Source: an uncultured Methanomicrobiales archaeon
GTDB lineage: Archaea > Halobacteriota > Methanomicrobia > Methanomicrobiales > Methanospirillaceae
Length of the DNA: 64,000 bases
Direction of reading: 5' to 3'
NCBI GenBank assembly: GCA_963758915.1
Contig: CAVWXH010000010.1
Span: forward strand, 96,001-160,000
Shown: in pieces, positions 2,486 to 63,763 of the stretch
Numbering within the stretch: position 1 is the stretch's first letter
Layout: the number at the start of each line of letters is the position of its first letter
Notes under the pieces: model-generated
Told to the model about the DNA's origin: nothing
The model's input: the letters and a program-made list of their open reading frames with translations, nothing else
The model's database searches: none
Translations under genes and position numbers: made by a program

Positions 2486-2534
2486 CCAACCAATCGAAAA
2501 AAGATAAGAATCCTGTTCCTGGAATTCTTACAGG

Positions 2535-2792: not shown

Positions 2793-2795
2793 CGC

Positions 2796-2957: not shown

Positions 2958-2998
2958 GGTAACTCCTGAGATTCCTTATAACTTCTCTTTTTAAACAA

Positions 2999-3589: not shown

Positions 3590-3641
3590 GGGTAAAGATC
3601 TATATCGTCAGCTTATTAAAACCGGACTGTGACCAGAAATA

Positions 3642-21256: not shown

Positions 21257-21513
21257 TGCTTTGTTGAAACCCTTCGGTGTCATAATATAAGAGGGAACTA
21301 CGAAGACAAGGGGGGGTTTCACCCCCCTGCCCCACACCTATTAAGATATTCTTCGGGCAGGGTTTCGGCGCAGGCTCATTAAATTCAGAGTATTGGGGGA
21401 TAGTCTCTATCCCGACCGGTGCGCCACAGCGGCGGGCCATGAGCCCCGGGAGCGTAGATAAATTTCAGAATAATCAGGATTCCGGGTGCCTATTATAGCT
21501 TTTCAACAGAGCG
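21257..21513. mobile_element. MITE-like element, copy 2
   Basis: TIRs GCTTTGTTGAAA ... TTTCAACAGAGC; shares ATTAAGATATTCTTCGGGCAGGGTTTC and GGGGGATAGTCTCTATCCC core with 5748-6095. Confidence 0.7.
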
Positions 21514-44743: not shown

Positions 44744-44806
44744 ACTTTTGTGAGGCTTTAGCTTGTCAATATGCGGCAAGTTCCCGCATTCCATCTGAGG
44801 TGCAGA

Positions 44807-48021: not shown

Positions 48022-48151
48022 CCCCCGGAAATCTTAAAATTCCTGTTTTTTGATGTTTCAATACGAATACCTATAGTCACACGCCCTGTTTCTCCTCCTG
48101 TATCAGAACCTTTAATAGCGCAAAAATCCTTCTTGTTATGCACTTTTGTGC

Positions 48152-48264
48152 GCTGCGGTGGCCTAGCTGGTTAGGGCGCCAGACTCATAGGGTTTTCGAG
48201 CAAATTCATTGGCGCCGTCATCTGAGACATCTGGAGGTCGCGGGTTCGGATCCCGTCCGCAGCA
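48152..48264 (+). tRNA. Elongator tRNA-Met(CAU) with ~39-nt intron at 37/38 (48190-48228)
   Basis: GCTGCGG/CCGCAGC acceptor, CCAGA-CTCATA | intron | A-TCTGG, GTTCGGATC. Confidence 0.92.
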
Positions 48265-48609
48265 TATACACGGCAAGTACGGAGCCCCCATTTTTTTACT
48301 GATTTTTGCAACCTTTTTTGCATGTCTGAAGTATTTCGGATAAAATCTGTGGCTGATATTGCATCGGCGCTGTTTTCATGGTGTCCAATATCGCTGATGT
48401 GGAAGCATTGGCGTTTTTATTTACGGGTGTTGTGCTTCTCGGAGGGGTCGCGGACCCCCCGGCCGCACGGGCCGCCGCCCCGATGTTGTCCCAGGATTAT
48501 GATCGCAAAAATAAATCTGGATATGAAAGATCGTTCGCACCACTGCCGAGGCCATCGGGCCTCGTCTCCGAGGTGCTCCCTGGTTTAGTGGTTGACCAGA
48601 TATAGGAGA

Positions 48610-49180
48610 CGGGCATCATGTTCGCTCCCTCGTTTCCTCACTCCACTTCGTTCCGTTCCGGGCCTCCTCCGCTCACTTCATGCCCTGGTTCTTCTGAATA
48701 TACCGGGGTGATACTGACGGCCAAGACTTCGTCGCGATGCTCCTCGTCATCGCCTGTTTCCTTCACGCTCCGGGACACATGGCTGATGCCATCGGTCCCG
48801 TTCGCTGTGTTCTGTTGAAGTGTAGACGCTCCGTGACTCCCTCGCTTCGCTCGGTCGGGCCGCTTGGCCCTTGATTATCTAAAATTAATATCGGCTGCTT
48901 ACCGTTAGCACTTGCAGCCTGTACGGAAAGGAGGGAGCACAGACCCGGTTGATACCGTGTCACCTCCGAGTGCTCCCACCGCCCTCTGATGAATCAGGAT
49001 ATGGTCTGGACAGGAAATGCAGACAGGGCGGGAAGGCAGCCCGGTTACGGACTGCATCAGCAGGCCGTCGGAGCTGTCGGGTGGGCGTGGTCAGGCAAAT
49101 GAGATCCCGGAACTACCACCCGTAGGGGTGGCGCTCGATGGCCGGGCCATCAGGACCGGACCGTGCGACGCCCCGCAGGG
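48610..49180. repeat. Long structured non-coding element, copy A (inverted relative to copy B)
   Basis: 48610-48839 is roughly 85-90% identical (by eye) to the reverse complement of 51788-52016; colinear motif blocks continue to 49180. Confidence 0.9.
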
Positions 49181-49281
49181 AAAAATTTGTCCTGGTCGAT
49201 AATCTGATAAGAAAAGGGAAGCAATAGATTAACCGACCGTAGCCGGTTAATATGCGTTTGTGGCACTTCGACCGGCTGCGG

Positions 49282-49476
49282 TTACTTGTTCCTGTTCTCC
49301 CTGATAAATTCCATAAAGTCCTCTTCACTGACCCGCCACTCGATGCCGATTTTTATCGCTCCCAGCCGCTTTTTTAAAATCAGTGTCCTGACTGTCTGGA
49401 CATGGAGATGCAGCATCGCAGCCACTTCCTCTGTCGTATAAAATTTATGAGGTGGGGGTTGAGCCACGTTAGCCAT
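49282..49476 (-). CDS. Excisionase-family (HTH_17) DNA-binding protein
   Basis: FYTTEEVAAMLHLHVQTVRTLI...AIKIGIEWRV. Confidence 0.88.
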   Translation of the reverse strand: MANVAQPPPHKFYTTEEVAAMLHLHVQTVRTLILKKRLGAIKIGIEWRVSEEDFMEFIRENRNK

Positions 49477-49482
49477 TAGTAC

Positions 49483-49923
49483 TCAGTCCTCCCCAGGAAG
49501 CATAACAGTTATGACCGGCTCGTAGTCATCGCCGGGTCCGCAGATTGCTTTGAGTTCTACGGTCTCGCTGCTCCTGTGGTGTATGATACCGGTTGCCCTG
49601 GCTCTCTTCTGCAGTAGTTCGAAGGCCACACGGAATATGATAACACTGCTGCCTCGTGATTTATTCGCCGCCATTCGCAACATCCAGAGCAGGTCCCAAA
49701 GTCTGCCGGTCAGGTCCTGGTCGGGCATCTCGGGAAGATACGAGGGTTCGATGTACTGATACCAGGCTGCCCGGGTGAGTGCGACCGGTACCGAGATCCC
49801 GGCCTGCCTGGTGAGGTCCCGGGGTGCTGCGATTAATTCGCCATCGTTCAGGGCATCGTCCCGGGTGTATCTGCTGATGATGTCCTCCTCGGTCCAGAAT
49901 GGAGAAGGGGTTGAGGTGGTCAT
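49483..49923 (-). CDS. DUF6573-like mobile-element protein
   Basis: ISRYTRDDALNDG, PVALTRAAW, GRLWDLL, GPGDD.EPVITVMLPGED. Confidence 0.75.
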   Translation of the reverse strand: MTTSTPSPFWTEEDIISRYTRDDALNDGELIAAPRDLTRQAGISVPVALTRAAWYQYIEPSYLPEMPDQDLTGRLWDLLWMLRMAANKSRGSSVIIFRVAFELLQKRARATGIIHHRSSETVELKAICGPGDDYEPVITVMLPGED

Positions 49924-50129
49924 ACCCGACCACCCCGGAGACGTGGTTTCCCGTTAGTAAAACCAGGCCGGATAATAATATCGTGAGGGGACACTTTCGA
50001 CCACATCCAGCCCATATTATGATTATGTGCATACACAGCAGCGAAATCAACCGCAGCACTATGATCGATGCACTCGGCGATGAGCTGAGGACCAACACCA
50101 CGATTGACAAAAATTTTGTATTCCATCAT
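49920..50129 (-). CDS. Hypothetical protein (69 aa)
   Basis: MMEYKIFVNRG...; starts in a TAATG overlap and ends in an ATGA overlap. Confidence 0.55.
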   Translation of the reverse strand: MMEYKIFVNRGVGPQLIAECIDHSAAVDFAAVYAHNHNMGWMWSKVSPHDIIIRPGFTNGKPRLRGGRV

Positions 50130-50462
50130 TACACCTCGGCGTGATGGCCACAGGCTCGGACAGTTGTATCCTGCGAGATAGTACACGGACCCAATCCGCT
50201 CAGTTTCACCCTGGTATTCGATGCCGATCATATGATGTTCAGGAGGGACTATTTCACCGCAGCTTTCGCACCGCTCCTCGTCATCGGGAATATCCCCTAA
50301 TACCTTTGAAATATTCCTGTTTTTCTGGGTGCAAAACTGGCAGATACCTTGTCCTTCTGAGTATATCCACGGGCAACGGGGGCATTCCTGATGTTCCCGC
50401 CGAAGTCGCAATGATGAAATATTCTTTTTAATCCGGGCAACCAGAAGGGAGAGGGAGGTCAT
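50129..50462 (-). pseudogene. Cys-rich Zn-finger protein with +1 frameshift at ~50153
   Basis: CPRC, CQFC, CESC; removing one base restores YNCPSCGHHAEV* with TAATG coupling. Confidence 0.6.
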
Positions 50463-50816
50463 ACCCTCGCCTCCTCTGCATGGTCCCGGTCCCATTGTTT
50501 AGAAAACTCTGCAATTGCCTGAGCCCTTGAACGGTTGGCCTCGACCACTTTCAGGAGATCTTCGAATTCTCCTGCACTCCTGCTACCGCATATCCGGCAG
50601 CGGAAACAGTGTTCGTAATATTCGTCCTCGATGATTTCGAGGTCCTCCAGCCTGCAGCACATTTCAGGCCACCCCGTATACTTTCGCGATTTCTTCGGCC
50701 TGACACCGCAGGTCCTGAGCTTCATAGCTCAGGAGATCGGATTGTTTCTGAAGATTGGCCGCTTCATCACGGAGGGAGGAGATCATTAATCCGGCGAATA
50801 CCGGGACCTTCTTCAT
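50459..50816 (-). pseudogene. Coiled-coil/Cys protein with +1 frameshift at ~50668
   Basis: MKKVPVF...KVYG joins PEMCCR...CRICG; 358 nt = 3n+1; ATGA overlaps at both ends. Confidence 0.55.
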
Positions 50817-51202
50817 GCTGACACCGCCAGAGGTGCTGCCTGTTCGGATACCTGGGTGATAGGTTCCCATGTGATTGTGGAAATGTTCGCAAACTTCCGT
50901 GAGCCTGCGATCGCTGCCCGGATATGTGAGAGCGGGGAGATATATCGCCTGCCGTGTATGTCGTACATGACCGCCCGGCCGGACGCGTTGATCCATGCCT
51001 GCCCTGCTTCTGTTGGTTCGCCGGACCCGGACCAGACCGGGGTCATGTCCCAGACGGTAACCCGTGCCAGGTCCCCGGTGAGCCGGGAAACATCGGAGCG
51101 GGCTATCGCTGCCTGTATGATTTTCACATCTATTCTCAACATGCCGCCGGACAGTTTCACGGTCCCGACGTGCTGAATTTTGGCAAAAAGCGTTTGTGGC
51201 AC
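50813..51202 (-). CDS. Hypothetical mobile-element protein
   Basis: 129 aa; first gene of the coupled operon; GQAWINASGRAV. Confidence 0.6.
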   Translation of the reverse strand: MPQTLFAKIQHVGTVKLSGGMLRIDVKIIQAAIARSDVSRLTGDLARVTVWDMTPVWSGSGEPTEAGQAWINASGRAVMYDIHGRRYISPLSHIRAAIAGSRKFANISTITWEPITQVSEQAAPLAVSA

Positions 51203-51320
51203 TTCATTTCACCACGTATAATATTAGGCGGGTGATGTTATAAGACAGCGCCATGCACGGTGTGAAAGTGAATCGCATTATATCGCAGCGTATAGTGTTG
51301 TGATATAAAACATGCGGTCG

Positions 51321-52016
51321 CCCTTCGGGAAGGCCCACTGCCGGCCTCCGGCCGTCTCCGAGGGCCTTCCCTCCGGGTATGTTGTCCTGGGATCTCTGTC
51401 GCTCCTCAACACCGCGACGGTCTGCCGACCGTAACCGGGTGTTGTCGTCGCTGGTTGTTGTTGTCCTGGTGCCGGGTGAAATATTACAGGACCAAAACAC
51501 GCTGTCGCTCCTCGGCACCTCGACCTCGCTCCGCTCGGTAACCGGGTGCCTCGTCGCTGGGTCTGGTGCTCCCCAACCCAACCCTATCATGTTTTGTCGG
51601 GCCGTCGAAGGTGGCACGGTCTCAGCCGGGCCTCGGCCTCCACAAGTAGCTCGCAAGCGTTAGCGGAAAGCGGGCGATTTTATATTCAATCCAGGCCAAG
51701 CGGCCCGAGTGAACGCCGCTAATGGGGTGCGAAGGTAACGAGACGTTCTCAAACGGCTCGTCCGAGCCCCACATGCGTCGCGTGAACGAGTCACCGAGCG
51801 TCTGCACTTGCACGGTAATCAGCGAACGGGACCGATGGCATCAGCCATGTGTCCCGGAGCGTGAGTTTCAGGCGATGACGAGGAGCACCGCGAGGAAGTC
51901 TTTGCCGTCAGTGTCACCCCGGAACAATCATGAAAAACCAGGGCATGAAGTGAGCGGAGGAGGCCCGGAACGGAACGCAGTGGAGTGAGGACACGAGGGA
52001 GCGAATATTATGCCCG
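51321..52016. repeat. Long structured non-coding element, copy B
   Basis: Inverted homolog of 48610-49180; contains an internal 106-bp duplication (51396/51502). Confidence 0.9.
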
Positions 52017-52061
52017 GTAAAATAAGGAGTATATTGTGAATTAGTTCAACTCATTTGTAAA

Positions 52062-52400
52062 TCAGAGCAGTTTTGTTTCTTCCGTGGGTTTAGGTACCTT
52101 GACCACCAGCACCCGGAACACGACCTCACTCTCATTCAGCCACCGGTGTGGGATCCGTGCAGGACTCTCCACCAGCATATCTTTGCCAACGGTATTTCGT
52201 TCGTCACCGATCTCAACAATCCCTGTGCCTTCGAGCACATAGAAGAAGACATCAACCGGAGTAGAATGCTTTTTCAGCGATTCCCCGGGCTGAAGTGTAA
52301 TTACCACGGCTATTGCATGTGTTGAGTCGTATATCTTTCGTGCGTCTACATGGTGGGGATTGGGTCCCGATACCACCTTTGCAACTTCAGTAATTTTCAT
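52062..52400 (-). CDS. Cupin domain protein
   Basis: LQPGESLKKH, FYVLEGTG, PARIPH. Confidence 0.9.
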   Translation of the reverse strand: MKITEVAKVVSGPNPHHVDARKIYDSTHAIAVVITLQPGESLKKHSTPVDVFFYVLEGTGIVEIGDERNTVGKDMLVESPARIPHRWLNESEVVFRVLVVKVPKPTEETKLL

Positions 52401-52402
52401 AG

Positions 52403-53092
52403 TTAATTCACCTTTTCTATTGGAATATACGGAATTAATGTAAGTAATTCCGATTTCAGCGTATCGATACCAATTCGTTCCATGAACCGGGCGGTCCGTT
52501 CATGCTTGTTTGCATGGCTCCGGTAGTATTCTGAAAGACGTTGTGCACAATCCACCGCCTCACTGGCAGTAAGGTCCCACGCAATAAGATCTCCAAAACG
52601 TGGTCGTGTGCCACCGTTACCACCAAAGAATACCATCCAGCCTCTTGTAGTGCCGATGATCCCGATATCCCGGGTATGACTTTCACTGCAACAGCGGGGA
52701 CAGCCGGAAACACCGATCTTGATCTTGGCCGGGAAGGACTGGTCTTTGAACTGGTTTTCAATAGTCCTGGCAAGTCCGATTGAGTCTTGTTTCCCGTATT
52801 TGCACATATCGGTCCCGATACAGGCATGGACAAACTTGACACATGGAGAGGTCTCTGGTTTTGCGAGCGGGCCAAGGTCAGCAAATACCCTTGAAACATC
52901 TTCGGGCTGAATCCCGGCAAGTAGCACCCTCAGGCCGGATGTGACCTTCAGGACGGGCACATGGTACTTTCGCCCGACTCTGGCAATTGTTTCGAGCTGT
53001 TCTGGAGTTATAATACCGGCAGGTATCCGGGTCGTGACCGCATAGGTCTTCCCGTCCCGCTGAAGAATTGCTCCTTCTGTAGAATTTGTCAT
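52403..53092 (-). CDS. Small siroheme-[4Fe-4S] sulfite/nitrite reductase-like protein
   Basis: CIGTDMC...KIKIGVSGCPRCC (Cx5C...Cx3C), RDIG, FGGNGG. Confidence 0.88.
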   Translation of the reverse strand: MTNSTEGAILQRDGKTYAVTTRIPAGIITPEQLETIARVGRKYHVPVLKVTSGLRVLLAGIQPEDVSRVFADLGPLAKPETSPCVKFVHACIGTDMCKYGKQDSIGLARTIENQFKDQSFPAKIKIGVSGCPRCCSESHTRDIGIIGTTRGWMVFFGGNGGTRPRFGDLIAWDLTASEAVDCAQRLSEYYRSHANKHERTARFMERIGIDTLKSELLTLIPYIPIEKVN

Positions 53093-53184
53093 TCTTTTTC
53101 ACGACTCCGTTGATTTACTCTTTTTCATATCTTTTTCGGGTCATGTTCCTCGCTACACTGATATTCTCCCCTTCCTGTGTTATT

Positions 53185-53964
53185 TCATGTCGCATGTCCG
53201 ATCATCTCTGAAAACAACCTGCTTTGAACACAAGTGATAAAAGGCAACGTAATAATGACTGCCATGCGGTTCCCGTCCTGATTGTAGATGAGCATCGATT
53301 CCTGGTCATCGGCTATGAGGATACACTCAAGTCTGAAGATAGCACCCTCGCGATTGATAGGCACGGAAAATACTTTTTCGAAAATATTCTCCCCGAAAAA
53401 GTCCCTGACTTGCCCGGCTTCAAAATACCTGATGCTGTCATGTATGAAAACCCCTTCTGCACCACCTTTAGGGAAAAGGATTCTTATCTCCCGGTCATTT
53501 GCGATTGAGAGGATCGGACCCTGGAATTTTTCAAGGGTCTCCGCATCGAAACAGAGAACAATGAGTGAACTGGTAACTCCTTCAACCAGCCTCTCAATGT
53601 TCCGCTGGATAGTCCAGTCACTATGAACGTACCAGATCGGAGAATAATTCTGCCGGGCATCTACCGACAACGCCTCAAGAGCCTTTACACTTTCAAACGC
53701 CGCTGTTTCGAGATCTTTTTTTAAGAAGGCTACAACTATGTCCGGGCGGACTGCCTGGTACATCAGCGGGCTTCCCTGTCGTATCTCAATGAATCCCTTC
53801 GCATCAAGTGCATTAAGGACATCATATACCCGTGGACGTGGGACTCCGCTGACTTCATGGATACTGCGGACATTTGCTTCACCGAGTCCGACAAGGGCCA
53901 CGTAAATTTTTGCCTCGTATTCTTTGAGTCCGAGCTGGACAAGGTTTTCAATTGCTTTATCCAT
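53185..53964 (-). CDS. TrmB family transcriptional regulator
   Basis: LGLKEYEAKIYVAL, SGVPRPRVYDVLNALDAKGFI. Confidence 0.92.
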   Translation of the reverse strand: MDKAIENLVQLGLKEYEAKIYVALVGLGEANVRSIHEVSGVPRPRVYDVLNALDAKGFIEIRQGSPLMYQAVRPDIVVAFLKKDLETAAFESVKALEALSVDARQNYSPIWYVHSDWTIQRNIERLVEGVTSSLIVLCFDAETLEKFQGPILSIANDREIRILFPKGGAEGVFIHDSIRYFEAGQVRDFFGENIFEKVFSVPINREGAIFRLECILIADDQESMLIYNQDGNRMAVIITLPFITCVQSRLFSEMIGHAT

Positions 53965-54018
53965 TTGTTACTCTGTAAGGGACAACATAATTAAATAGTT
54001 ATCTGTCAAGCATAGTGT

Positions 54019-54454
54019 ATGACACAACTATCCAGCGAACCTGAGAATATCGCAGTTGTCCGCAAATTTTTTGAGGTTGGCCCATCGAAAGGTGACCTTG
54101 CCGCAGCCGACGCAATTCTGGCACCCTGAATTTTCCCTGCATACCCCGTTGCCGACCCCGGGACCCGGGATCGAGGCGATGAATAACGTCATTATCACCT
54201 GCCGGGCTGCATTTCACGATCTTCATGTGACTATTGATGACATTATGGCTGATGGGGATAAGGTTACAGCCCGTTTCACGGCACGTGGCATGCACAAAGG
54301 GGAATTTATGGGCCTTCCTCCCACGGGAAAGGCAATCGCCATGACTGGCATTGAAATTTTCCGGGTGAAGGACGGGAAGATTACGGAGCTGTGGGGTGAA
54401 GCGAATGTAATGGGACTGATGCAGCAGCTGGGTATTTTACCGGTCCCGGCATAA
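54019..54454 (+). pseudogene. SnoaL-like ester cyclase with +1 frameshift at ~54120
   Basis: ENIAVVRKFF...ADAIL joins HPEF...AFHDL...GDKVTAR...GEFMGLPPTGK. Confidence 0.8.
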
Positions 54455-54481
54455 AGCGGAATAAACGAAGGGTGAAATTTC

Positions 54482-55252
54482 ATGGTTTTTTCACAGATTC
54501 CAAAAGCAATAGGGTTCATCTACGCCCTGGTAATAATTGGGGTTATTGCCTACCTCTGGTATTCCGGACGATGGCGAAAGAAGATCGCCTGGCTGCTTCT
54601 TGTTATTTCAGTTGCCCTGGGTTTTCTCATATTTTCACCGGTATTACCCTGGCAGTTCCAGCAGCTTGTATTAGGTGATGTGCAGGGACTGGGAGGGCCC
54701 CTGATTGTCGGTGTTATCGGGCTCGCTATTTTTTTATTGCTGACCTTCATTTTTGGAAGGTTCATCTGTGGATATATCTGCCCGGTCGGCACCATACAGG
54801 AGATCGCCTCCCATGCACCGGTCCCCAAAGTCAGCCTGCGTCCGAAGAAGATGTTCATGGGAATAAGAGCGGTGTTCTTTGTTCTGTTTCTCGTGATGGC
54901 ATTCGTATTTTCAGCCTCACTGCTGGCCTTGTTTGGCATACAGGATTTCTTTTACCTGTCAGTTACTGCAGGGACACTCGTGTTTATTATCATATTGTTG
55001 CTGTCTATGACCCTGTATCGCCCGTTTTGCCGCCTTATTTGTCCGTATGGGGTGCTATTATCGCTCGGTGCGTGGAAGTCAGCGTTCAAAATACACCGGT
55101 CCAGTGCATGTATCGAATGTAAAAAATGTGAAAAAGCATGCCCCACAGATGAAGCAAAACGTGATGATGGAAAAGCGGAATGTTATCTCTGTGGAAGATG
55201 CACGGATGTCTGTCCGGTTACCGGGGCCCTGGAATATAAGCGTGGATGGTGA
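54482..55252 (+). CDS. Membrane 4Fe-4S protein (NapH/CcoG-like polyferredoxin)
   Basis: GRFICGYICPVG, RPFCRLICPYG, two CxxCxxCxxxCP motifs. Confidence 0.9.
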   Translation: MVFSQIPKAIGFIYALVIIGVIAYLWYSGRWRKKIAWLLLVISVALGFLIFSPVLPWQFQQLVLGDVQGLGGPLIVGVIGLAIFLLLTFIFGRFICGYICPVGTIQEIASHAPVPKVSLRPKKMFMGIRAVFFVLFLVMAFVFSASLLALFGIQDFFYLSVTAGTLVFIIILLLSMTLYRPFCRLICPYGVLLSLGAWKSAFKIHRSSACIECKKCEKACPTDEAKRDDGKAECYLCGRCTDVCPVTGALEYKRGW

Positions 55253-55301
55253 ATGAAGCAAATGAGAGATGAATTAAAAATATTCTCGCATGGAGGATTG
55301 C

Positions 55302-55667
55302 ATGGTAGAATTTAAACTGGAAAACCCGGATAAGCACGACAAAAAACGGGAGGAACTCGGTGCAAAAGTCCTCGATCTCAAAGAACTGGTCTCCTACCAG
55401 GACGGGACCGTTGCGAGCCGGATGATCGTCAACAACAAGGCCGGGAGTATCACGATCTTTTCATTTGACGAGAACGAGGGACTTTCCGAGCATACAGCAC
55501 CCTATGACGCTGTGGTTACGATCCTTGATGGTGAGTGTGAAGTATGGGTTGCCGGCCAGACCCTCCAGATGAAAGCGGGGCAGACTATTATCTTTCCGGC
55601 AAACGCACCTCACGCACTCAGTGCCATCACAAAATTCAAGATGACACTGACTATGATCCGGGGGTAA
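55302..55667 (+). CDS. Cupin domain protein
   Basis: FSFDENEGLSEHTAP, PANAPHAL. Confidence 0.9.
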   Translation: MVEFKLENPDKHDKKREELGAKVLDLKELVSYQDGTVASRMIVNNKAGSITIFSFDENEGLSEHTAPYDAVVTILDGECEVWVAGQTLQMKAGQTIIFPANAPHALSAITKFKMTLTMIRG

Positions 55668-55671
55668 CCAG

Positions 55672-55963
55672 ATGGGCGGGAATGAGCAGGACGGCTACTA
55701 TTGCACAATCTGTGGAGGTATCCCTCCGGATAAAATTAACATCAGGCAGATTCTTGTTGACGGTAAAGAGACCGGGATCGATAAACTGGATTGGATTATC
55801 GCAGAGGTCAGGAAACTGAACCTTTCCGATGACACAGTTATCACCGAAGAGCTCTTAAAACGAACGAAGGCGCTCAACTACGTTCCCACCAAAAAGACAA
55901 ATGATTACGGCGATGGCATTGCTGATGGAATATAAAAAATCCGGGGTTGAAACCGGTGCTTGA
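55672..55963 (+). pseudogene. Small CxxC protein with probable +1 frameshift at ~55909
   Basis: YYCTICGG...NYVP; removing one G gives ...YAMALLMEYKK. Confidence 0.6.
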
Positions 55964-56192
55964 CCATTGTCCCGGTTCTGCGAACCTCAGGACCCCAACA
56001 CTTTCAATAAAAAAGTGCCCGGAATGCGGAGAGGAAATTGAAATTTTCTCAAATGACATCAAGGTGGCATGCAGCAACTGCGGCTTTGTTATCTATAACG
56101 ATATTGTATCGTGTGTCCAGTGGTGCAAGTATGCGAAAGAATGCGTAGGTGAGGAGATGTACCGGAAACTGGTTGAGAAGAAAGAGGGATGA
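55956..56192 (+). CDS. Small Cys-rich Zn-ribbon/Fe-S protein
   Basis: HCPG, CPECG, CSNCG, CVQWCKYAKECVG. Confidence 0.8.
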   Translation: MLDHCPGSANLRTPTLSIKKCPECGEEIEIFSNDIKVACSNCGFVIYNDIVSCVQWCKYAKECVGEEMYRKLVEKKEG

Positions 56193-56306
56193 TGGGAAGC
56201 TCCCGTATCGGGCATCAGTTCCCTGACCATATTTCAACACCGCCCAATTAATGACCAGACGCTCTGCACAGAAATTTGAATGAGATAAAATGAAACGTGA
56301 AAAGCC

Positions 56307-56859
56307 ATGCCACCCCATTGCGATACGAGAGATGGCCCCGTTGTTAAGGCAGCGATTAAAGCACTCGAAACGGGGAATTTGAATTATGTACCTGATCTGG
56401 ATCCCGAAAGAGTCCGAGGAAGAACTCGAAGGGATCTTCGAGAAAACACAGCGGGCCAGAAAATCCGGAAAGGATGCACAGGAAGTTGCCGATGACTGGT
56501 TCTTCGAGAATACCATCCGGCTCCACCGGGCCGGTGAGGGAGCCGCGTATACCGGAATGAAACCCGCTGGCCTCAGCGAAGGTCCAGTTGTGCCGAAAGC
56601 AGAGAACGCAATTGAGATCGAAGATCCCAAAGAATCGATTGATTTTATCTTAAAGACTGTTGAAGATGATCTGACCCATCGCTTCCATCATGTTATGGCA
56701 AAGAAAAAGTATGACGTGAACGATGTTGCTGCCGGCAGGGAATACATAGAGGCGTTTATCGGCTGGGTCGTCTATTCCCATCATCTCTGGCAGTCGGTGA
56801 CAACTGCAGCCGGGCATGGCGAGAAGCATGAGGAGAAAGCCGGGTGCGGTCACCACTGA
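56307..56859 (+). pseudogene. DUF6448-like protein with +1 frameshift at ~56390
   Basis: HCDTRDGPVV...NYV joins LIWIP...FFENTIRLHRAGEGA; His-rich tail. Confidence 0.75.
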
Positions 56860-57061
56860 TCACTACCTGCCCTCGCTCTTTTTCATAGGGACGCGATGGA
56901 GTATCAGGAAGAATGATGTCTCACATGGATTTCATTGTCAGAATAGTGATTTCTGAACACAACTGTTTTAGGTCATTGGACTCGAAGAAACGGTGAAACA
57001 CCGGTGATTTTTAACAACCAAATTCTCCCCGGTATGCTTTGCCATTATCAGGATTTGCAAT

Positions 57062-57421
57062 TTACAGCACGCAAACCTTGCAGTCCTGTTTACCACAGGG
57101 AATATTGTCAATCTTCCATTTCAACGCCCACTGCTTGATAATCCGGATCACGTCCACAATTTCAAGACCGCTTTCCGTCAGGGTGTATTCTGTCCTTACC
57201 GGGAATGCGGTTGCGTCCACATTCCTGGTGAGAATTCCTTCTTCTTCAAGTTCTTTGAGCCGTTCCGAGAGAATTTTTGGTGTAATACCGTCAAGAGCAT
57301 CCCGGAGCTCGGAAAACCTGCGGGTATACCCCTTGCCTTTGTAGAGCTCAAGGATGATCAGCAATGTCCATTTCTTTGTCAGATATTTCACGGTCTGGTT
57401 GACCGTGCACGCATCCTGCAT
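57062..57421 (-). CDS. HxlR family winged-helix regulator with Cys residues
   Basis: KKWTLLII, RFSEL, ITPKILSERLKELEEEG, EYTLT; Cys5 and C-terminal CxxxxCxxC. Confidence 0.92.
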   Translation of the reverse strand: MQDACTVNQTVKYLTKKWTLLIILELYKGKGYTRRFSELRDALDGITPKILSERLKELEEEGILTRNVDATAFPVRTEYTLTESGLEIVDVIRIIKQWALKWKIDNIPCGKQDCKVCVL

Positions 57422-57499
57422 GATATGTATCTGGATACTCTCGGTTATTTATACCTTGTAAATTTTGATATCTAATATAAAAAAGAAATCAATGGAGTT
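57365..57499. promoter_or_regulatory. Divergent promoter region, copy 1, with TATA and imperfect TTGATA-N5-TATCAA operator (57465-57481)
   Basis: Homologous to 58304-58439; TATTTATA at ~57446. Confidence 0.65.
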
Positions 57500-57509
57500 A
57501 GTGAAACAC

Positions 57510-58169
57510 ATGACTAAAACAAACATTCCCGAAAAAGGAGCGATTGTCCAGCGCGACATGGAGACGTACCTGATTCATCCCCACATCCCCGGCGGTTTTG
57601 TCGAACCGAAATTGCTGAGGAAGATTGCGGACGTAGCTGAGAAGTATGGGGCGAAATACCTGAAGCTGACCGGGGCGCAGCGGATCGCGATCATCGGCCT
57701 GCAGGAAAAGGACCTTGACAATGTCTGGGCTGAGTTCGATGACCGGAAAAAGGCCATCGGCCTCACTATCCGATCCATCCAGATGTGCCCCGGCACACGG
57801 TCGTGCAAGAAAGCCAAGCAGGACAGCCCGGGCCTCGGATTTGCGTTGGACACTGAATACTACGGGAAGCCGGCACCTGCAAAGTTCAAGATTGGCATCT
57901 CGGGTTGCGACAACTGCTGCGCCGATTCGTGGATGAAGGATCTCGGCTTTTTCGGCACCGAGCAGGGATTCACCGCAGTTGCCGGCGGTAAGGGCGGCGG
58001 CACGGCACGGGTAGGTCAGGTCATCGCGACCGGCCTGACCGAGGCCCAGGCAATTGCCCTAGCCGACCGGGTGATCACGTTCTACCGTACAAACGGGAAA
58101 GGACCGGAACGCCTGGGTGGCACCATCGACAGGGTCGGGTTCGACACATTTATGAAAGCAGTGAAGTAA
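57510..58169 (+). CDS. Small siroheme-[4Fe-4S] sulfite/nitrite reductase-like protein (second paralog)
   Basis: CPGTRSC...KFKIGISGCDNCC, KDLG, AGGKGG. Confidence 0.88.
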   Translation: MTKTNIPEKGAIVQRDMETYLIHPHIPGGFVEPKLLRKIADVAEKYGAKYLKLTGAQRIAIIGLQEKDLDNVWAEFDDRKKAIGLTIRSIQMCPGTRSCKKAKQDSPGLGFALDTEYYGKPAPAKFKIGISGCDNCCADSWMKDLGFFGTEQGFTAVAGGKGGGTARVGQVIATGLTEAQAIALADRVITFYRTNGKGPERLGGTIDRVGFDTFMKAVK

Positions 58170-58303
58170 TACGATTGCCGGGTGACCCGGCAACCATATC
58201 TGAAAATTGTTTGACGATTGGTGAACAGGATTCTATAATAGGAATCCTTTTACTGACAATTTAGCGCAAGTAACCATACTTGTTATTTTTTGAGGAGAAT
58301 GTG

Positions 58304-58439
58304 TGTCCATTTCTTTGTCAGATATTTCACGGTCTGGTCAACCATGCACGCATCCTGCACGGTATGTATTTGGAAACTCCCGAGTATTTATAATCAGGTA
58401 TACAATTGATATTTTGTATCAAAAAGAAATAATGGAGTT
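58304..58439. promoter_or_regulatory. Duplicated promoter region, copy 2 (hxlR 5' remnant plus perfect palindrome TTGATA-N5-TATCAA at 58406-58422), upstream of hcp
   Basis: Direct repeat of 57365-57499. Confidence 0.7.
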
Positions 58440-58441
58440 CG

Positions 58442-60064
58442 ATGATGTTCTGCTACCAATGCGAAGAGACCGTTAAGGGGACGGGATGTACGGTTAAAGG
58501 TGTCTGCGGTAAGGAAGACGAGATCGCTGCATACCAGGATGTGCTTATCTACGTCTGCAAGGGGATCTCGGTCAGGAACCTTGCGGCAATGGATAAGGGT
58601 AAAGGAGATCCTACGGTGGGATTGTTCATCGCTGACGCCCTTTTTTCCACGCTGACCAATGTAAATTTTGATAAAGCACGATTCTTTGACATGATTAACC
58701 ATGCTGTTGCGCTCAGGGATACCCTCCCGTCAACTGGTAATGCTGAACCGGATGCCTGTACCTGGAAACCGAAAAGTGACAGCGATATCCTGGAGAAGGC
58801 AAAAACCGTAGGGATTCTGGCAACATCCAATGAAGATGTCCGCTCGCTTCGCTCTACCCTGCTCTTCGGGCTTAAGGGTATTGCAGCCTATTACACCCAC
58901 GCTGCGGTGCTGGGTAAAACAGATGATTCTATCACAGCATTTCTCCAGAAAGGGCTTACATCCACCCTGAACGATCTGACGGTCCCCGACATGATTGCTC
59001 TCGTAATGGAATGCGGGGAAAACGGGGTAAAGGTCCTTGCCCTTCTCGATTCAGCCAATACCTCCGCATATGGAAATCCGCAGATCACGAGCGTTAAAAC
59101 AACAGCAGGATCACGCCCGGGGATCCTGATCACCGGTCATGACTTAAAAGACCTTGAGATGCTGCTTGAACAGTCAAAAGACGCAGGTGTTGACGTATAC
59201 ACCCATGGCGAGATGCTTCCGGCACATGCGTATCCTGCGTTCAAAAAATACACTCACCTGTATGGCAATTACGGAAGTTCGTGGTGGCACCAGAAGGAGG
59301 AGTTCGAGCAGTTCAACGGCCCGGTCCTGTTCACGACCAACTGCCTTGTTCCACCGAAGGATACCTACAAGGACCGTGTCTTTACAACCGGACTTGTCGG
59401 GTTTTCAGACACCAAACACATCACCGCGTCCAAAGATGGGAACAAGGACTTCTCATCGATTATTACGTACGCAAAGACCTGCCAGCCACCCAAAGCCCTC
59501 CCGGGAAGCGGGAATGACCTCATCACCGGTTGTGCCCATGGTGCGGTACTTGCGATTGCAGACAAGGTTGTTGCTGCGGTAAAGAGCGGGGATATCAAAC
59601 GGTTCATCGTCATGGCCGGATGCGATGGCAGGCAAAAAGAACGGGAATATTACACGAATTTTGCCCAGGCCCTACCAAAGGATACGGTGATTCTCACAGC
59701 AGGGTGCGCTAAATACCGGTACAACTCTCTCAATCTCGGTACTATTGGCGGGATTCCAAGAGTACTAGATGCAGGCCAGTGCAATGACTGCTACTCCCTG
59801 GTCGTGATTGCACAGGCTCTTGCCAAGGCATTCGGTGTCGGTATCAACGAGCTGCCGGTCTCGTACAATATCGCGTGGTACGAACAGAAGGCGGTCCTGG
59901 TCCTGCTTTCATTGTTGTCACTCGGCGTAAAAGATATCACGCTTGGTCCAAAACTTCCGGCGTTTGTCTCCCCCACGGTGCTCGATGTGCTCGTGAAAAA
60001 TTTCGATCTCAAACCCAACACGACTGTCGAGGCAGACCTTGCCCGGATGGTACCAGCCAAGTAA
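58442..60064 (+). CDS. hcp: Hybrid cluster protein (hydroxylamine/NO reductase)
   Basis: [44 protein letters not shown]. Confidence 0.97.
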
Positions 60065-60100
60065 ATTAAAACGAATGGTCCTCATACTAAAGGAAGAGCA

Positions 60101-60736
60101 ATGAACGGTAAACAGATCGCAGGTGAATGCTCAGCACTCCGGTCAAAGAAGACCAAAGGTGAGCTTGGCGAAGCCATTGCGGCCATCGTCCTGCAGTATT
60201 CACCCCGCGACCTTCAGCAGATGCAATGGAATTTTTCGGGTGCAGTCCAGGACTATAACCCTGAATACCGGAAAAGACTGGAGGAGGCCACCACCGGTCA
60301 CCTTAACGGGACGTACCAGGCACTCCGGCGAATGCATGAGTTGAAGAATTTTAGTACGATGAGGGAACACCTTGCAACGGATGCCGGCGATTACTGGAAG
60401 ATGGTCTCGGTGCAGTGTTCATCAGGAGAGGAGGAACAGGTCCGGCTGAGGTTCTTAAAACTCCTGCTTGCAGGCTTCTGCATGTTTGTGCAGGGACTTC
60501 CCGGCCACCCGGTAGGGATGCCGTTTCCCGGGGGGAACACGGTTGAGCTCATAGACGGGGTGTATTACTGCCCGGTCCGGGAGAAGGCAAACGATGTCGA
60601 TTCCGCCCTCTGCCCGTTCTGCCCGGCCCTGCAGACCCTGGAGATCGGGTATCTCAAACCGCCGGTGAATGCAAGCAAGCACCGGAAGCAGGAGTTTATC
60701 AATAACTGCTACGACCACCATAATTTCAACGGGTAA
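60101..60736 (+). CDS. DUF2115 (UPF0305) family protein
   Basis: HPVGMPFPGG...YYCPVR...LCPFCPA. Confidence 0.88.
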   Translation: MNGKQIAGECSALRSKKTKGELGEAIAAIVLQYSPRDLQQMQWNFSGAVQDYNPEYRKRLEEATTGHLNGTYQALRRMHELKNFSTMREHLATDAGDYWKMVSVQCSSGEEEQVRLRFLKLLLAGFCMFVQGLPGHPVGMPFPGGNTVELIDGVYYCPVREKANDVDSALCPFCPALQTLEIGYLKPPVNASKHRKQEFINNCYDHHNFNG

Positions 60737-60832
60737 CATGTTCCGCTTTTTTTCTTATTTTTCCCTGGCTGGGCACCGAAATAATTGCAGCAAATTGATA
60801 TTGGGATTATCGGGCCAGATTTATGATAATCA

Positions 60833-60943
60833 TCCTGCCCACGGCTCCATGATTTCGCCTGGCGAAATTCTTTCTCTTGACAGGAATGTGAGCGATAGAA
60901 GACCGGAACGGGATGAAGTGGAGCGAGGACACGAGGGAGCGAA
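60833..60943 (+). repeat. Composite repeat: 42-bp hairpin repeat (shared with 61638-61679) plus 56-bp copy of the outer end of the long element (cf. 51950-52005)
   Basis: GCTCCATGATTTCGCCNGGCGAAATTCTTTC; GTGGAGNGAGGACACGAGGGAGCGAA. Confidence 0.85.
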
Positions 60944-61031
60944 CTTGAAGCCGGACTGATATATCCACTCACTTTCATCCCGCACGCCCCTTGCACTTAT
61001 CAACCTGAACCGGTAACCCATAGCACCTATC

Positions 61032-61631
61032 ATGGATCTTGAATGGCCAGGCGATATCTGCATCCCGGAACGGACAATAACCGTAATCATTGGCCCCTCC
61101 AGTATCCTCGAAGCGGGACTTAACAGTTGTAGCGGCACAATGCGACGTTATCCATTCCTCTATGTTTGCAGCAATTATTCCGGCGTACTCCCGAACCTGC
61201 ACAGGACATCGTTTGAGTTTTCTGTCCGACGAGGATTCACATCCGACCAGATGGCCACAATCATCAACGAATGTGATGCAACCTACCTCATTATCGAGCA
61301 CGACCCTTCGCTCTATGAAGCTGATACGAAATTGATTCCGAGTGTCATTAACCGGTTGAAAACGTTTGCCCGTAACGAAGGCACGGTGGTTGTGTATTCC
61401 CGGTATCTCGACAGATTTATGCGATCTCTTCTCCGGGCATCAGGCAGGGCATATCTCTATGCAGACTGGGCAAATGTAATCAGAAATAGCCAGTTAAGGA
61501 AACAGCAAAAAAATGGGTCGGCCAAGAGAATTGTATCCAGGCAGGTCCGACTTGATCAGGTTAGTAGACCCGAAGTATCACAGAGGGATCTTGAGAGTGG
61601 ACTAGCCGACCTCGTAGTAACAGATGAATGA
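61032..61631 (+). CDS. Degenerate RecA/RadA-like protein (no Walker A), similar to proteins of archaeal PolB2 operons
   Basis: VRRGFTSDQMATII...IIEHDPSLY motif, recalled from this family and not search-verified. Confidence 0.5.
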   Translation: MDLEWPGDICIPERTITVIIGPSSILEAGLNSCSGTMRRYPFLYVCSNYSGVLPNLHRTSFEFSVRRGFTSDQMATIINECDATYLIIEHDPSLYEADTKLIPSVINRLKTFARNEGTVVVYSRYLDRFMRSLLRASGRAYLYADWANVIRNSQLRKQQKNGSAKRIVSRQVRLDQVSRPEVSQRDLESGLADLVVTDE

Positions 61632-61637
61632 TGGTCC

Positions 61638-61679
61638 TCCTGCCCTCCGCTCCATGATTTCGCCGGGCGAAATTCTTTC
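61638..61679 (+). repeat. Second copy of the 42-bp hairpin repeat
   Basis: TCCTGCCCTCCGCTCCATGATTTCGCCGGGCGAAATTCTTTC. Confidence 0.85.
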
Positions 61680-61806
61680 GCGAAGCCGAAAGGGAGCGGA
61701 CAGGAGGCACCGGTGGTGTGGCCCCGCCCTTTAGGCTTGGTAGGGCGGGGAGTTGGGGGTGGGTCGGTCGCAGGGGCGAAGGGCTTCCTGAATAAAAGGG
61801 CGACAG

Positions 61807-61890
61807 CTCCCGTACATTTGGATAGAAGCTCCGTACATTTGATGGATAGACTCCGTACATTAGGATGAGAACTCCGAACGTTTGAGAAAA
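61807..61890 (+). repeat. Four iteron-like direct repeats (CTCCGTACATT core, 21-22 bp period)
   Basis: Starts at 61807, 61829, 61851 and 61872, followed by an AT-rich tract. Confidence 0.8.
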
Positions 61891-62106
61891 CCCAGAGCAG
61901 TCCGATAGTATATTCGGGTCTAATGAGGAATCAACCGTATAAGGCCCAGATTACTTCCAGATTTACTTATACAACCAAACCCATTCTAAATATACTAATA
62001 GCATACATACAGCGCTTTTTCGTAAATGCGTAAACTACAGTTAACTTAAGAACGCGGTTATATTGTAGATAAACCAACAGTATATCTGAAAGAGTTGTGG
62101 TGAATT

Positions 62107-63249
62107 ATGGGACGGAAAGCTGGAGAATTTGTGCGACAGGATCGGGGGTATGATGCCTTCATCCCCAATCCTTTACCGCCGGATATTGAATATGATGATG
62201 AATTGCGTCTTCTTCTCTCGAAGGCCGATGCAGCCCTGGCCCGCCTTGACGGGGTAACTGAAGTCCTCCCGAATCCCGATATCTTTGTTGCAATGTACGT
62301 GAAGAAAGAAGCGTTGCTATCCGCCCAGATTGAAGGGACGCAGGTCTCGCTTCAGGGGGTGCTGGAATTCGAAGCAAATCTCAAACCAAAGGAGGATATC
62401 CGGGATATCAGGGAAGTTATCAATTACATACGAGCCATGAATTATGGCGTCGAGCATCTTCGGAATGGTGACCTGGACCTTGCGTTAATCAACGAGTCCC
62501 ATAAGACGCTGATTACCGGGACGAGGGGTTCTGATAAAAATCCCGGCAGATACAAGGACAAACAGAATTTTCTTGGAACCCCGGGAGGATCTATCTTCCA
62601 GGCATCATTTATCCCGCCGCCACCGGCAAAAATTGAACAGCTGATGGGGGAACTTGAAAAATTCATCAAAGAAAAAGACAAGTTGCCGGTACTCATCAAA
62701 ATTGCACTGATTCATGCACAGTTTGAAACGATCCACCCCTACCTTGATGGTAACGGGAGGATGGGACGGCTTCTTATCACGTACTATCTCTATTGGACGA
62801 AATCGCTATCGAGGCCCCTGCTCTACCTGAGTTTCTATCTCAAGAAATACAAACCGGAATATGCTGAACACCTTAACAGAATACGGTTTCATGATGACTG
62901 GGAGGCCTGGTTGAAATTTTTCTTAAAGGGCGTTATTGAAGTATCAGAGAACGCCATTCAATCGGCAAGGGAAATTATCGCGTTGAAGGATAGTTCGATT
63001 AAGAAACTGATCGAAAATAAGGTAGGTGGAATGAATGCGATCAGGTTACTTGATCTCTTATTCGACAATCCGACTGTTTCAATCAGAGAAGTGGCGGATG
63101 AACTGAAGATCAGCCCGGTCGCTGCAAACAAACTGGTCAACAAAATGGTGGGCCTGGGTATCCTGCAGGAAATTACCGGAAAAGAACGATACCAGATGTT
63201 TGCATTTGTTGATTTTATCAGGATTATTGAAAAGGGGACACGGGTGTAA
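62107..63249 (+). CDS. Fic family protein (class II, C-terminal HTH)
   Basis: HPYLDGNGRMGR catalytic motif; N-terminal SAQIEG inhibitory motif. Confidence 0.95.
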   Translation: MGRKAGEFVRQDRGYDAFIPNPLPPDIEYDDELRLLLSKADAALARLDGVTEVLPNPDIFVAMYVKKEALLSAQIEGTQVSLQGVLEFEANLKPKEDIRDIREVINYIRAMNYGVEHLRNGDLDLALINESHKTLITGTRGSDKNPGRYKDKQNFLGTPGGSIFQASFIPPPPAKIEQLMGELEKFIKEKDKLPVLIKIALIHAQFETIHPYLDGNGRMGRLLITYYLYWTKSLSRPLLYLSFYLKKYKPEYAEHLNRIRFHDDWEAWLKFFLKGVIEVSENAIQSAREIIALKDSSIKKLIENKVGGMNAIRLLDLLFDNPTVSIREVADELKISPVAANKLVNKMVGLGILQEITGKERYQMFAFVDFIRIIEKGTRV

Positions 63250-63402
63250 TTACCCGCGGTTTTTAACGGAACGAAAAATTGGGAGGTGGCTAAACCTCCC
63301 GGCTCCCTCTATGCCCCGAAGGGCAACTACTACTCTGTCGCAAATCAGTATCAACCTCTGCGAAATTGTAGCCCCGGAAAAATTAGGTACGGGAAAAAAG
63401 AT

Positions 63403-63763
63403 CTATTGATTTACATTTGGTGGATTTTTCCTGCCTGCTACCTTTAAGGCATATATCAGGCCAATTGCAACTAGAAATGCCAGAATCGTCCCTCCCACAA
63501 TTGCAAGAATTCCACCCGTAGAACCCAATCCCTTCACCAAGTGAATAATCCGGCATCGGGGCTGAATACGCAAACTTTCCTTCCAGATTCTCCTGAATTT
63601 CTGCATCAGGTGGAGTTGGCCCGATGAGTGATTTCTGTCCCTGGATAATCAGGGCTGTGCTTTCCATGCCATCCGGATCGCTTGATGCAAGGAATACTGC
63701 CACCACCCCGATAAGTATTGCGATGACAAGACCCCCAATTATCAGAGTTTTATTGTCGATCAT
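63403..63763 (-). pseudogene. PDGLE-domain Co/Ni ECF transporter accessory protein with +1 frameshift at ~63530
   Basis: ASSDPDGME...APMPDY joins LGSTGGILAIVGGT. Confidence 0.8.

Follow-up and report, generated by a model that had tools for sequence, protein, structure and literature searches.

A purine-rich motif of 56 nt occurs three times in a 64,000-nt stretch of DNA (hereafter the window) from an uncultured Methanomicrobiales archaeon of the family Methanospirillaceae (GenBank assembly GCA_963758915.1, contig CAVWXH010000010.1, positions 96,001 to 160,000 of the forward strand). An initial annotation proposed that this motif may be a recombination or processing site, comparable to attC or pdif, which captures or excises modules of stress-related genes. 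Our analysis points to a different interpretation. The motif is the tip of a much longer arm, and an inverted pair of such structured arms appears to bound a 3.4-kb accessory cassette, which recurs in tRNA-integrating islands of one uncultured Methanomicrobiales genus. We assign this reading a probability of about 0.55.

Compared genomes are designated G000 (the genome under study, 18 contigs), G001, and so on, contigs C1, C2, etc. (the window lies on C10), and fetched loci L001, L002, etc. The relatives are titled uncultured Methanomicrobiales or Methanoregulaceae metagenome-assembled genomes, many of which are fragmented at exactly these repeats. Public sequencing runs were also used, the best of which contains 0.29 of the sampled words; contigs from three of them (X1, X2, and X12) are fragments of relatives, and 0 raw reads of a further run (X21) mapped.

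Inverted Arms and the Cassette between Them

The pattern CCGGAACGGNANGNAGTGGAGNGAGGANACGAGGGAGCGAA was found without mismatch at 48621-48661 (-), 51965-52005 (+), and 60903-60943 (+), and 0.00 matches were expected by chance (100 shuffles). The three 56-nt copies previously reported at 51950-52005 (+), 60888-60943 (+), and 48621-48676 (-) are thus real. The two direct copies share 80% identity over 65 nt (51950-52014 and 60888-60952), or 83.9% over 56 nt by BLAST, and the likeness of the third copy to the inverted copy continues to 60965 (78 nt, 81%). A protein-coding function of the motif was ruled out because indels and stop codons break the frames between copies.

The inverted copies belong to a pair of much longer repeats (48610-48839 and 51788-52016), which are 88.7% identical over 229-231 nt. 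This pair runs on inward as diverged homologous structured segments (beta in the left arm and alpha in the right arm) and outward as a weakly conserved stretch of about 25-30 nt that reaches about 48591 and 52050. The 56-nt motif is the outer, 3'-terminal 56-78 nt or so of an arm that is 0.3-0.45 kb long. Read outward, the general plan of an arm consists of an inner structured segment, an optional mid segment (about 80 nt), an outer part of 150 nt whose last third is the purine-rich motif, and a terminal spacer, which often ends in a GTYRAC-like hexamer. On the right arm, a 97-nt insert (c) precedes the mid segment and the spacer reaches GTTCAAC at 52044-52050. Alpha and beta are diverged versions of a single design.

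The fold of the inner arm on the outward-reading strand is supported by covariation. A covariance model of this segment (R1) matched C10:144876-144995 on the - strand (E-value = 1.8e-39) and C10:147580-147692 on the + strand (E-value = 3.7e-47). The consensus fold of 32 sequences contains 21 pairs in four helices, and 96.7% of the 672 cells are paired. Double changes were observed at 13 pairs. Values as high as these were reached in 0 of 500 shuffles, and pairing fell to 25-46% in a control in which the partners were slid by 1-3 columns. By our own count, there are 34 G-U cells versus 7 A-C cells, indicating that the folding strand is the outward-reading one, that is, + at the right arm and - at the left arm. 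Pairs were also found within the motif: the adjacent columns 113/138 and 114/137 have double changes in 9 and 7 sequences, respectively, switching among AC/GU, GC/GC, and GU/AC in a complementary fashion, and the neighboring CC/GG pairs are 98% paired. Around the motif, a GGGCAU/AUGCCC stem shows 85% pairing and few double changes. Columns 107/142, 108/141, 113/138, and 114/137 of this alignment (A1) would form kink-turn-like pairs.

The cassette occupies 48591-52050. Comparison with 11 other copies revealed a substitution bias at third codon positions only in 49282-51202 on the - strand; 48610-49281 and 51203-52050 are conserved and non-coding, with no codon-phase bias. The genes and other features are listed in table 1. 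The operon ends at 49282 and reads outward into the beta, mid, and outer segments of the left arm. Its first gene, orf129, shows 69-93% identity in our alignment (A3) and a third-position bias of 0.63-0.68. No match of its product was found in Pfam, PHROG, NCBIfam, or PDB (profile search, 0 matches), nor any usable one in the ESM Atlas, and an AlphaFold2 model based on 15 sequences (mean pLDDT 50.8) was too poor for a fold search. DUF6573, another family of the operon, is otherwise a family of bacterial plasmids, with 238 PLSDB records (many of them conjugative plasmids) and 0 phage records. Among ten ORFs searched against PHROGs and NCBIfam, the helix-turn-helix (HTH) protein alone was recognized. 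The cassettes examined contain no transposase, integrase, Cas1, or Rep-like family, and Pfam analysis of the 28 ORFs in 43976-63763 revealed no recombinase family. In the whole genome, Phage_integrase (PF00589) was only detected at C3:81648, C18:38978, and C5:18521-19007.

Two of the most distant cassette copies (L037 and L053), which come from two genera, have an RNase III-like ORF directly before alpha that reads outward and encodes 169-170 amino acids. The two element-borne proteins share 73% identity with one another and about 35% with the mini-III-like host copy (G000:C3:218137-218556), whose family gene is present in 37 of 41 related genomes (G000 counted). The window's cassette lacks the RNase III-like gene.

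Table 1. Features of the window and of two distant cassette copies (positions are those of the window unless a locus is named).
Feature	Position	Strand	Remarks
tRNA-Met (CAT)	48152..48264	+	intron of about 40 nt; Rfam tRNA, 55.1 bits; missed by ARAGORN
LF module	48393..48590	+	GC-rich core hairpin at about 48536-48583; 79-81% identity to C1:52481-52690; adjoins the arm in 10 copies
Left arm, read outward	48591..48995	-	inverted repeats I1, I2, I4; 88.7% identity to the right arm over 231 nt
Left arm segments	beta 48851-48995; mid 48761-48850; outer 48610-48760 (motif 48621-48676); spacer to about 48591	-	
HTH_17/excisionase-family protein, 64 aa	49282..49476	-	last operon gene; PF12728 (4.7e-15); TIGR01764 (1.1e-11); codon-phase bias
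DUF6573 protein, 146 aa	49483..49923	-	PF20213 (2.4e-23)
Double zinc-ribbon protein, 191 aa	49920..50495	-	varies among copies; weak DZR match; homologs in 11/11 other cassettes; coding phase signal
ORF, 88 aa	50459..50725	-	variable middle of the cassette; in 3/11 other cassettes; phase signal
orf129, conserved protein, 129 aa	50813..51202	-	first operon gene; homologs in 11/11 other cassettes
Conserved non-coding stretch	51203..51560	.	from operon to right arm; in 10-11/11 other copies; codon-phase bias 0.38-0.44 (none)
Right arm, read outward	51561..52050	+	inverted repeats and BLAST; R1 match
Right arm segments	alpha 51561-51692; insert c 51691-51787; mid 51788-51868; outer 51869-52020 (motif 51950-52005)	+	
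Cargo	52057..60752	.	cupin, two small NIR_SIR, TrmB, 4Fe-4S, cupin, DUF6448, HxlR, hybrid-cluster protein (Prismane), DUF2115 (Pfam)
Broken B repeat, first 59 nt	60816-60874	+	broken at hairpin apex; repeat D3, 86% identity to 61621-61679
Filler, 13 nt	60875-60887	+	after broken B
Third copy, 5'-truncated stub	60888..60965	+	last 78 nt of an arm; nhmmer profile positions 85-163 only
199-aa gene	61032..61631	+	archaeal hypothetical family; conserved neighbor of arm tips; no Pfam match
Complete B repeat	61621..61790	+	long hairpin and GC hairpin; very abundant in the genus
Tandem repeat, 21-nt unit AGCTCCGTACATTTGGATAGA	61805..61884	+	3.7 copies; iteron-like; followed by an AT-rich stretch
RNase III-like ORF	L037:6454-6963 (= G010:C132)	+	PF14622/PF00636
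RNase III-like ORF	L053:1916-2428 (= G020:C137, other genus)	-	PF14622/PF00636

Distribution of the Arms and Their Island Context

Arm copies are present at seven places in G000: the pair in the window, a full cassette at C1:52481-56149 (82-88% identity), solo arms on C4 and C5, and the stub at 60888. Of 41 genomes (G000 counted), 13 have arm matches, including 10 of the 12 remaining members of the genus and two genomes from two further genera. The architecture of the cassette was mapped in 20 loci, and many arm matches form inverted pairs 2.5-3.7 kb apart. The fetched loci contain 41 unique arm sequences, of which 32 have the full outer part. In a wider sample of 151 genomes of the class, the inner-arm model was found in four (G000 counted). 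Many arm copies lie on short contigs, and many contigs of relatives break at the arm. In one metagenome contig, the left arm is typical except that a 1.55-kb insertion (L228:707-2258) interrupts its beta segment.

A 21-mer of the motif, when searched in metagenomes, hit seven contigs, which yielded one full cassette, two arm-bearing fragments, and three short stubs. No blastn match of the arm was observed in plasmid and phage collections, and an exact 20-mer of the arm gave one false match in viral contigs and an unspecific list in genome contigs. No account of this element was found in the literature texts searched (PMC13343696 among them, supplements aside), none of which names DUF6573.

The locus sits in an integrase island located at tRNA-Met. 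At 48265, synteny is lost with G006 (92% identity, no full arm) and G001, and at 48295 with G004; similarity to G006 resumes at C5:20468 of G000. A 15-nt repeat of the 3' end of tRNA-Met is located at C5:19574-19588, about 570 nt from a tyrosine-integrase gene (C5:18521-19007, - strand). This gene is split (its pieces match profile positions 5-74 and 102-169), and the island integrase is probably inactivated. The loss of synteny, the 15-nt repeat, and the integrase together indicate that the whole of C10 beyond 48265 and C5:1-19588 form one island of at least 68 kb, whose left attachment point is the 3' end of tRNA-Met and which is interrupted by contig ends (the end of C10 and the start of C5). 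It carries genes for ion transporters, P-type ATPases, universal stress proteins, and glycosyltransferases. No word longer than 10 nt that might represent arm-type integrase sites is common to both island ends.

Similar locations were observed for other copies. Six arm copies are found 100-350 nt from the 3' ends of tRNA genes (Met, two Leu, and Thr three times), and in five of five genomes which lack the island at tRNA-Thr, the sequence differs from the very end of this tRNA gene onward. Empty sites were seen for the tRNA-Met island, for tRNA-Thr, and for a 2.46-kb insertion (C5:21079-23538) that ends in an arm and a B repeat; none was found in relatives for the 3.4-kb cassette itself. The cassette looks like a standard component of the tRNA-proximal end in a group of related integrase islands, and about 1 kb separates its excisionase-like gene from the attachment site.

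Other repeats occur in and around these islands. Families of about 190 nt (C1:56343-56534, C1:58021-58194, and C10:160542-160734) and about 105 nt (63277-63382 in the window) recur around cassette-bearing islands in 8 of the 12 other genomes of the genus. A dispersed repeat of about 200-270 nt (72-91% identity), which is probably MITE-like (MITE, a miniature transposable element with inverted repeats), is present at 5753-5993 and 21299-21455 of the window and in about 90 more places in the genome.

Flanking Modules and Origin of the Third Motif Copy

Three types of sequence recur beyond the arm tips, namely the LF module, the B repeat, and a unit containing the 199-aa gene; other flanks are unique. 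LF, a hairpin, is followed by a T-run in three of five copies. The HTH_17 end of the cassette faces LF in 6 of 10 copies and the orf129 end in the other 4, implying either that the interior was inverted or that the cassette was inserted both ways. One X2 contig joins 49170 to 51333 on opposite strands and may represent a variant copy.

The unit of the 199-aa gene (60963-61750) is conserved in at least eight places in the genus, and the protein matched archaeal hypothetical clusters alone in the ESM Atlas (0.95-0.96). In addition to the complete and partial B repeats of the window, B was detected at C4:5302-5449, C5:23399-23552, and C9:187501-187621, and individual genomes of the genus contain as many as about 13 matches. 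The last 14 nt or so of B (GGTCGCAGGGGCGA) also stand at the empty site of the C5:21079-23538 insertion in G006, and this sequence resembles an attachment core. Downstream of the complete B repeat, the AGCTCCGTACATTTGGATAGA array stands upstream of a Fic/DOC gene (62107-63249); it is possibly a replication origin or a regulator-binding array of an integrated element. Arms, LF, B, and the 199-aa unit combine differently by genome, and they may be breakpoints at which accessory clusters are shuffled between islands.

The third copy of the motif lies between the cargo and the 199-aa gene. In G009:C16, which is the orthologous locus, tRNA-Met, LF, and the cassette (90-98% identity) are followed by an arm that abuts the 199-aa gene before the contig ends. 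A full arm directly before this gene was also found in G010:C111 (where B follows) and G009:C102, and G006:C3 has a shorter stub at the same place. The window departs from G009 right after alpha, continuing with c, mid, and outer segments (a long-form arm, as on C1), the cargo, half of B, the filler, and the stub. The same hybrid-cluster-protein (hcp) and DUF2115 genes in G011:C190 and G003:C134 are followed by an intact B, with neither the stub nor the 199-aa gene, and the half-B-to-stub join is absent from the other genomes among the 13 searched. The arm of G009 is of the short form (no c or mid); therefore, it could not be derived from the layout of the window by recombination within the 78-nt repeat. 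We consider it quite probable that the third copy is the stub of an arm which once abutted the 199-aa gene, rather than a second site.

According to this scenario, about 9.2 kb (51691-60887), comprising the long-form arm segment (c, mid, and outer), the hcp cargo, and the broken B with its 13 nt of filler, would have replaced roughly 125 nt of the resident arm and left the 78-nt stub. The left junction would coincide with the point of divergence between the short and long forms of the arm, the right one would be an illegitimate join, and the direct repeat of the tip would be a by-product of the replacement.

The initial annotation had read the layout as site-genes-site, and suggested that the motif, as folded single-stranded DNA (ssDNA), is a dedicated recombination or processing site whose copies bracket modules that are captured and excised as circles. 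Several observations agree with this proposal. Gene content does change close to the motif: copies cease to resemble each other no more than about 25-30 nt past ATGCCCG, where flanks of at least five classes are attached. Two cases of arm, cargo, and tail in direct orientation are known (the window and G005:C279, the latter with a single methyltransferase gene), solo tips are kept in several contexts, and the pairs inside the motif are retained through double changes. The cargo order is also circularly permuted relative to its paralog on C6, with DUF2115 first instead of last.

However, an autonomous attC- or pdif-like site is not supported. The copies exist, but they are the terminal segments of an inverted arm pair and of an arm stub, the intact arm of which is preserved before the 199-aa gene in three other copies. 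Three tail-only stubs among the 41 unique arms begin at different profile positions (67, 85, and 102), the right cargo junction (half a B repeat plus filler) is not clean and looks like illegitimate joining, and the identity of the flanking copies is no more than 80-84%. Without the motif, these cargo genes are found in the C6/C5 paralog, G009:C12, G011:C190, and G003:C134. No recombinase gene is present in or beside the cassette, and the Phage_integrase matches of the genome lie on C3, C18, and C5 only. Since the C6 DUF2115 gene is 81% identical and the rest of the cargo 94-96%, the apparent permutation involves two different DUF2115 genes. A circle joint was not seen in the run contigs, which had no power to show one. 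A direct repeat bracketing genes is not by itself evidence of a capture site, and we regard this explanation as improbable.

The possibility that the layout is an assembly artefact, in which strains or loci were joined through the repeated arm, was also considered. The relatives are metagenome-assembled, the arm is a dispersed repeat at which contigs of many of them break, and no X1, X2, or X12 contig bridges 52050 or 60887. On the other hand, the arm copies differ by 10-20% and are therefore distinguishable in assembly, the junction of half B, filler, and stub was not made through a repeat, the contig extends on both sides and measures 193 kb, and related mosaics exist in other genomes such as G012:C368 and G005:C279. 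An artefact is thus very improbable.

The cargo has a compact paralog (C6:1-3455 or 1-4127 plus C5:132646-132935; 94-96% identity), likeness to which begins at 52057. The paralog lacks 52559-55138, most of 56193-57061, and 57500-58303; its DUF2115 gene precedes the cupin gene, with 32 nt between them, instead of following hcp. Similar layouts were found in G009:C12 and G012:C368. Judging from its predicted gene products, the hybrid-cluster-protein cargo is possibly linked to redox or nitrosative stress. An upstream region is duplicated within it (57365-57453 and 58304-58392, 89 nt, 89% identity; 57465-57489 and 58406-58430, 25 nt, 84% identity). The duplicated region precedes a small NIR_SIR gene (57465-58169) and the Prismane gene (58442-60064), lies beside an HxlR gene (57062-57421, - strand), and is probably a shared promoter or operator.

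Possible Action of the Arms and Comparison with Known Systems

The arms would act as folded single strands, read outward, and most likely as RNA. Their intrastrand covariation with a G-U bias implies a folded single strand, either RNA or ssDNA. Moreover, the arms are located sense-downstream of outward-reading genes, that is, the operon before beta and, in two copies, the RNase III-like gene before alpha, which favors a role of RNA. From such sequence features, a role at the RNA level, as a 3'-untranslated or processed RNA module, may be given slightly less than an even chance. An ssDNA cis element is rather unlikely, and plain double-stranded ends bound by a transposase are still less likely. 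In this respect, the pairing of the arms agrees with the single strand that the initial annotation had assumed. The long dispersed arms (80-95% identity) would also be substrates for inversion and for rearrangements that shuffle modules.

No match other than the tRNA was found in 48300-52100 with Rfam 15 at the gathering score, nor at E-values up to 10. A C/D-box sRNA or a guide-RNA-like tip or spacer was considered and dropped by eye; the boxes are in an unsuitable order, and within one flank class the spacers are homologous to one another, not hypervariable.

Another explanation is that the arms are the terminal inverted repeats of a non-autonomous, MITE-like cargo transposon moved in trans, the motif being the transposase-binding end and the stubs decayed solo ends. 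The inverted repeats are indeed long (88.7% identity over 229-231 nt, and about 400 nt in all when the diverged inner parts are included), and the element is multicopy and occurs in both orientations to LF (6 and 4 of 10). Its copies have unrelated flanks, though those of LF, B, and the 199-aa gene recur, and many are on short contigs typical of repeats. In one metagenome contig, an IS630-type transposase gene (L227:298-1435; HTH_32 and DDE_3 in two overlapping frames) lies 45 nt before a 40-nt stub of the arm tip. A short repeat (TTGGGAGGTGGCTAAC) near this gene is also present beyond the right arm of the C1 cassette.

Nevertheless, we consider a transposon of this type unlikely. No transposase was found in any cassette examined, and the IS630-type gene has neither a matching inverted repeat nor an inverted stub partner. 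A target-site duplication was not recognizable; the tip is fuzzy, with a GTYRAC-like hexamer at both ends, and is the least conserved part of the arm. A G-U-biased intrastrand covariation is not expected of double-stranded transposase-binding ends, and no link to Cas1 or a family B DNA polymerase (PolB) was observed. The copies are tied to the tRNA-proximal ends of islands, suggesting that copy number may reflect the number of island copies.

Some observations weigh against the interpretation of the arms as the structured ends of an accessory cassette with the motif as their tip. The outer arm, including the motif, has a weak consensus fold (-3.36 kcal/mol), and the whole arm folded as a single sequence is no better than shuffled sequences on either strand (z = -0.51 and +0.27). 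The RNA contigs of X12, which come from relatives, cover the cargo only (52062-60752), with zero depth at 48000-51735; the basis of the RNA reading is therefore strand bias together with gene order. For the 3.4-kb cassette, no target-site duplication, transposase, or empty site was found. The direction of the replacement at the third copy is deduced from three further copies and from a single orthologous locus, which a contig end truncates. None of the X1, X2, and X12 contigs, which are fragments of relatives and have no power to exclude such a join, bridges 52050 or 60887. G005:C279 provides a second arrangement of arm, one gene, and tail in direct orientation. Solo tails of about 40-95 nt recur (G006:C3, L227, and L230), and the repeated survival of the tip alone could mean that the tip has its own function, as the initial annotation proposed.

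A more speculative hypothesis would account for such tips. The arms might be a so far undescribed class of structured modules of about 300-450 nt which define both ends of a new archaeal mobile cassette, with the purine-rich terminal hairpin, including a kink-turn-like pair of small helices, as the minimal cis-acting unit; this unit would be the point of module exchange and would possibly be processed by the RNase III-like enzyme of the element. We regard this as quite doubtful. If true, a minimal cis-acting tip would explain why solo stubs survive in several genomes and before the 199-aa gene, and arms acting as RNA together with an element-borne RNase III-like enzyme would represent an unusual regulatory device for an archaeal mobile element.

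With regard to known systems, MITE-like passenger elements share with the cassette inverted conserved ends, a short transposase-free interior, multiple copies, solo or truncated ends, and varied flanks. The cassette differs in that its arms are far longer (0.3-0.45 kb), have a G-U-biased covarying fold, and are poorly conserved at the extreme tip; in addition, neither a target duplication nor a matching transposase was found, and the copies cluster at tRNA-proximal island ends. A covariation-backed fold in long inverted arms is unlike what would be expected for ordinary transposon ends.

Like attC and pdif sites, the motif is a short recurring sequence at the borders of modules with some evidence of single-strand folding. 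However, it is the tip of a larger repeat, and the boundaries of its stubs vary. Arrays of attC sites adjoin an IntI gene with attI and a promoter, whereas the motif has no linked IntI and forms no array; attC is an imperfect palindrome forming one hairpin, whereas the motif is a purine-rich tract with only a closing stem of 6-7 bp and four inner pairs. Integron cassettes are mostly single genes in the same orientation, whereas the window contains three copies, one of them inverted, with intervals of about 6 and 12 genes on both strands. The pdif sites are 28 bp long (11-6-11) and in opposite orientation, whereas a palindrome of this kind is missing from the motif, the cargo lies between direct copies, and no Xer is linked.

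Casposons are archaeal self-synthesizing transposons with terminal inverted repeats, often located near tRNA genes (PMC4046053, PMC9939771). The cassette resembles them in being archaeal, in its terminal inverted repeats, and in its closeness to tRNA 3' ends. Casposons contain a Cas1 casposase and a family B polymerase. The 15-nt tRNA-end repeat belongs to the island and not to the cassette. A casposon was rejected: Cas1 (PF01867) is on no arm-bearing contig across the genome and the genus, and G000 has a single Cas1 gene, which encodes 312 amino acids, lies on C3, and is conserved in 13 of 13 genomes of the genus. Pfam analysis of the cassette ORFs revealed no polymerase family; polymerases were not sought genome-wide.

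The context of the cassette is that of a tRNA-integrating island with a tyrosine integrase: this island begins exactly at the 3' end of tRNA-Met, has a 15-nt repeat of that end beside an integrase gene at its other boundary, and is absent from a relative with 92% identity. An excisionase-family gene about 1 kb from the tRNA-proximal end fits the same pattern. The island of the window differs in that its integrase is split and in that it is a mosaic of repeated modules (arms, LF, B, and the 199-aa unit).

The Hin/Gin switches and shufflons are invertible segments with inverted repeats of about 26-30 bp. They share with the cassette an interior bounded by inverted repeats and the occurrence of both orientations relative to the flank among members of the family. 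However, the cassette ORFs include no invertase, the repeats are hundreds of nucleotides long, and the two orientations were seen between copies and genomes rather than within one population, where the X2 contig that joins 49170 to 51333 may be a variant copy.

Searches of Rfam, of Pfam (for most of the proteins), and of plasmid and phage collections revealed no counterpart of the cassette family. In methanogens other than the cultured model genera, mobile elements have hardly been charted, and this locus reveals a lineage-specific cassette family. What is new here, compared with the systems above, is a repeat-bounded mobile cassette with unusually long structured arms.

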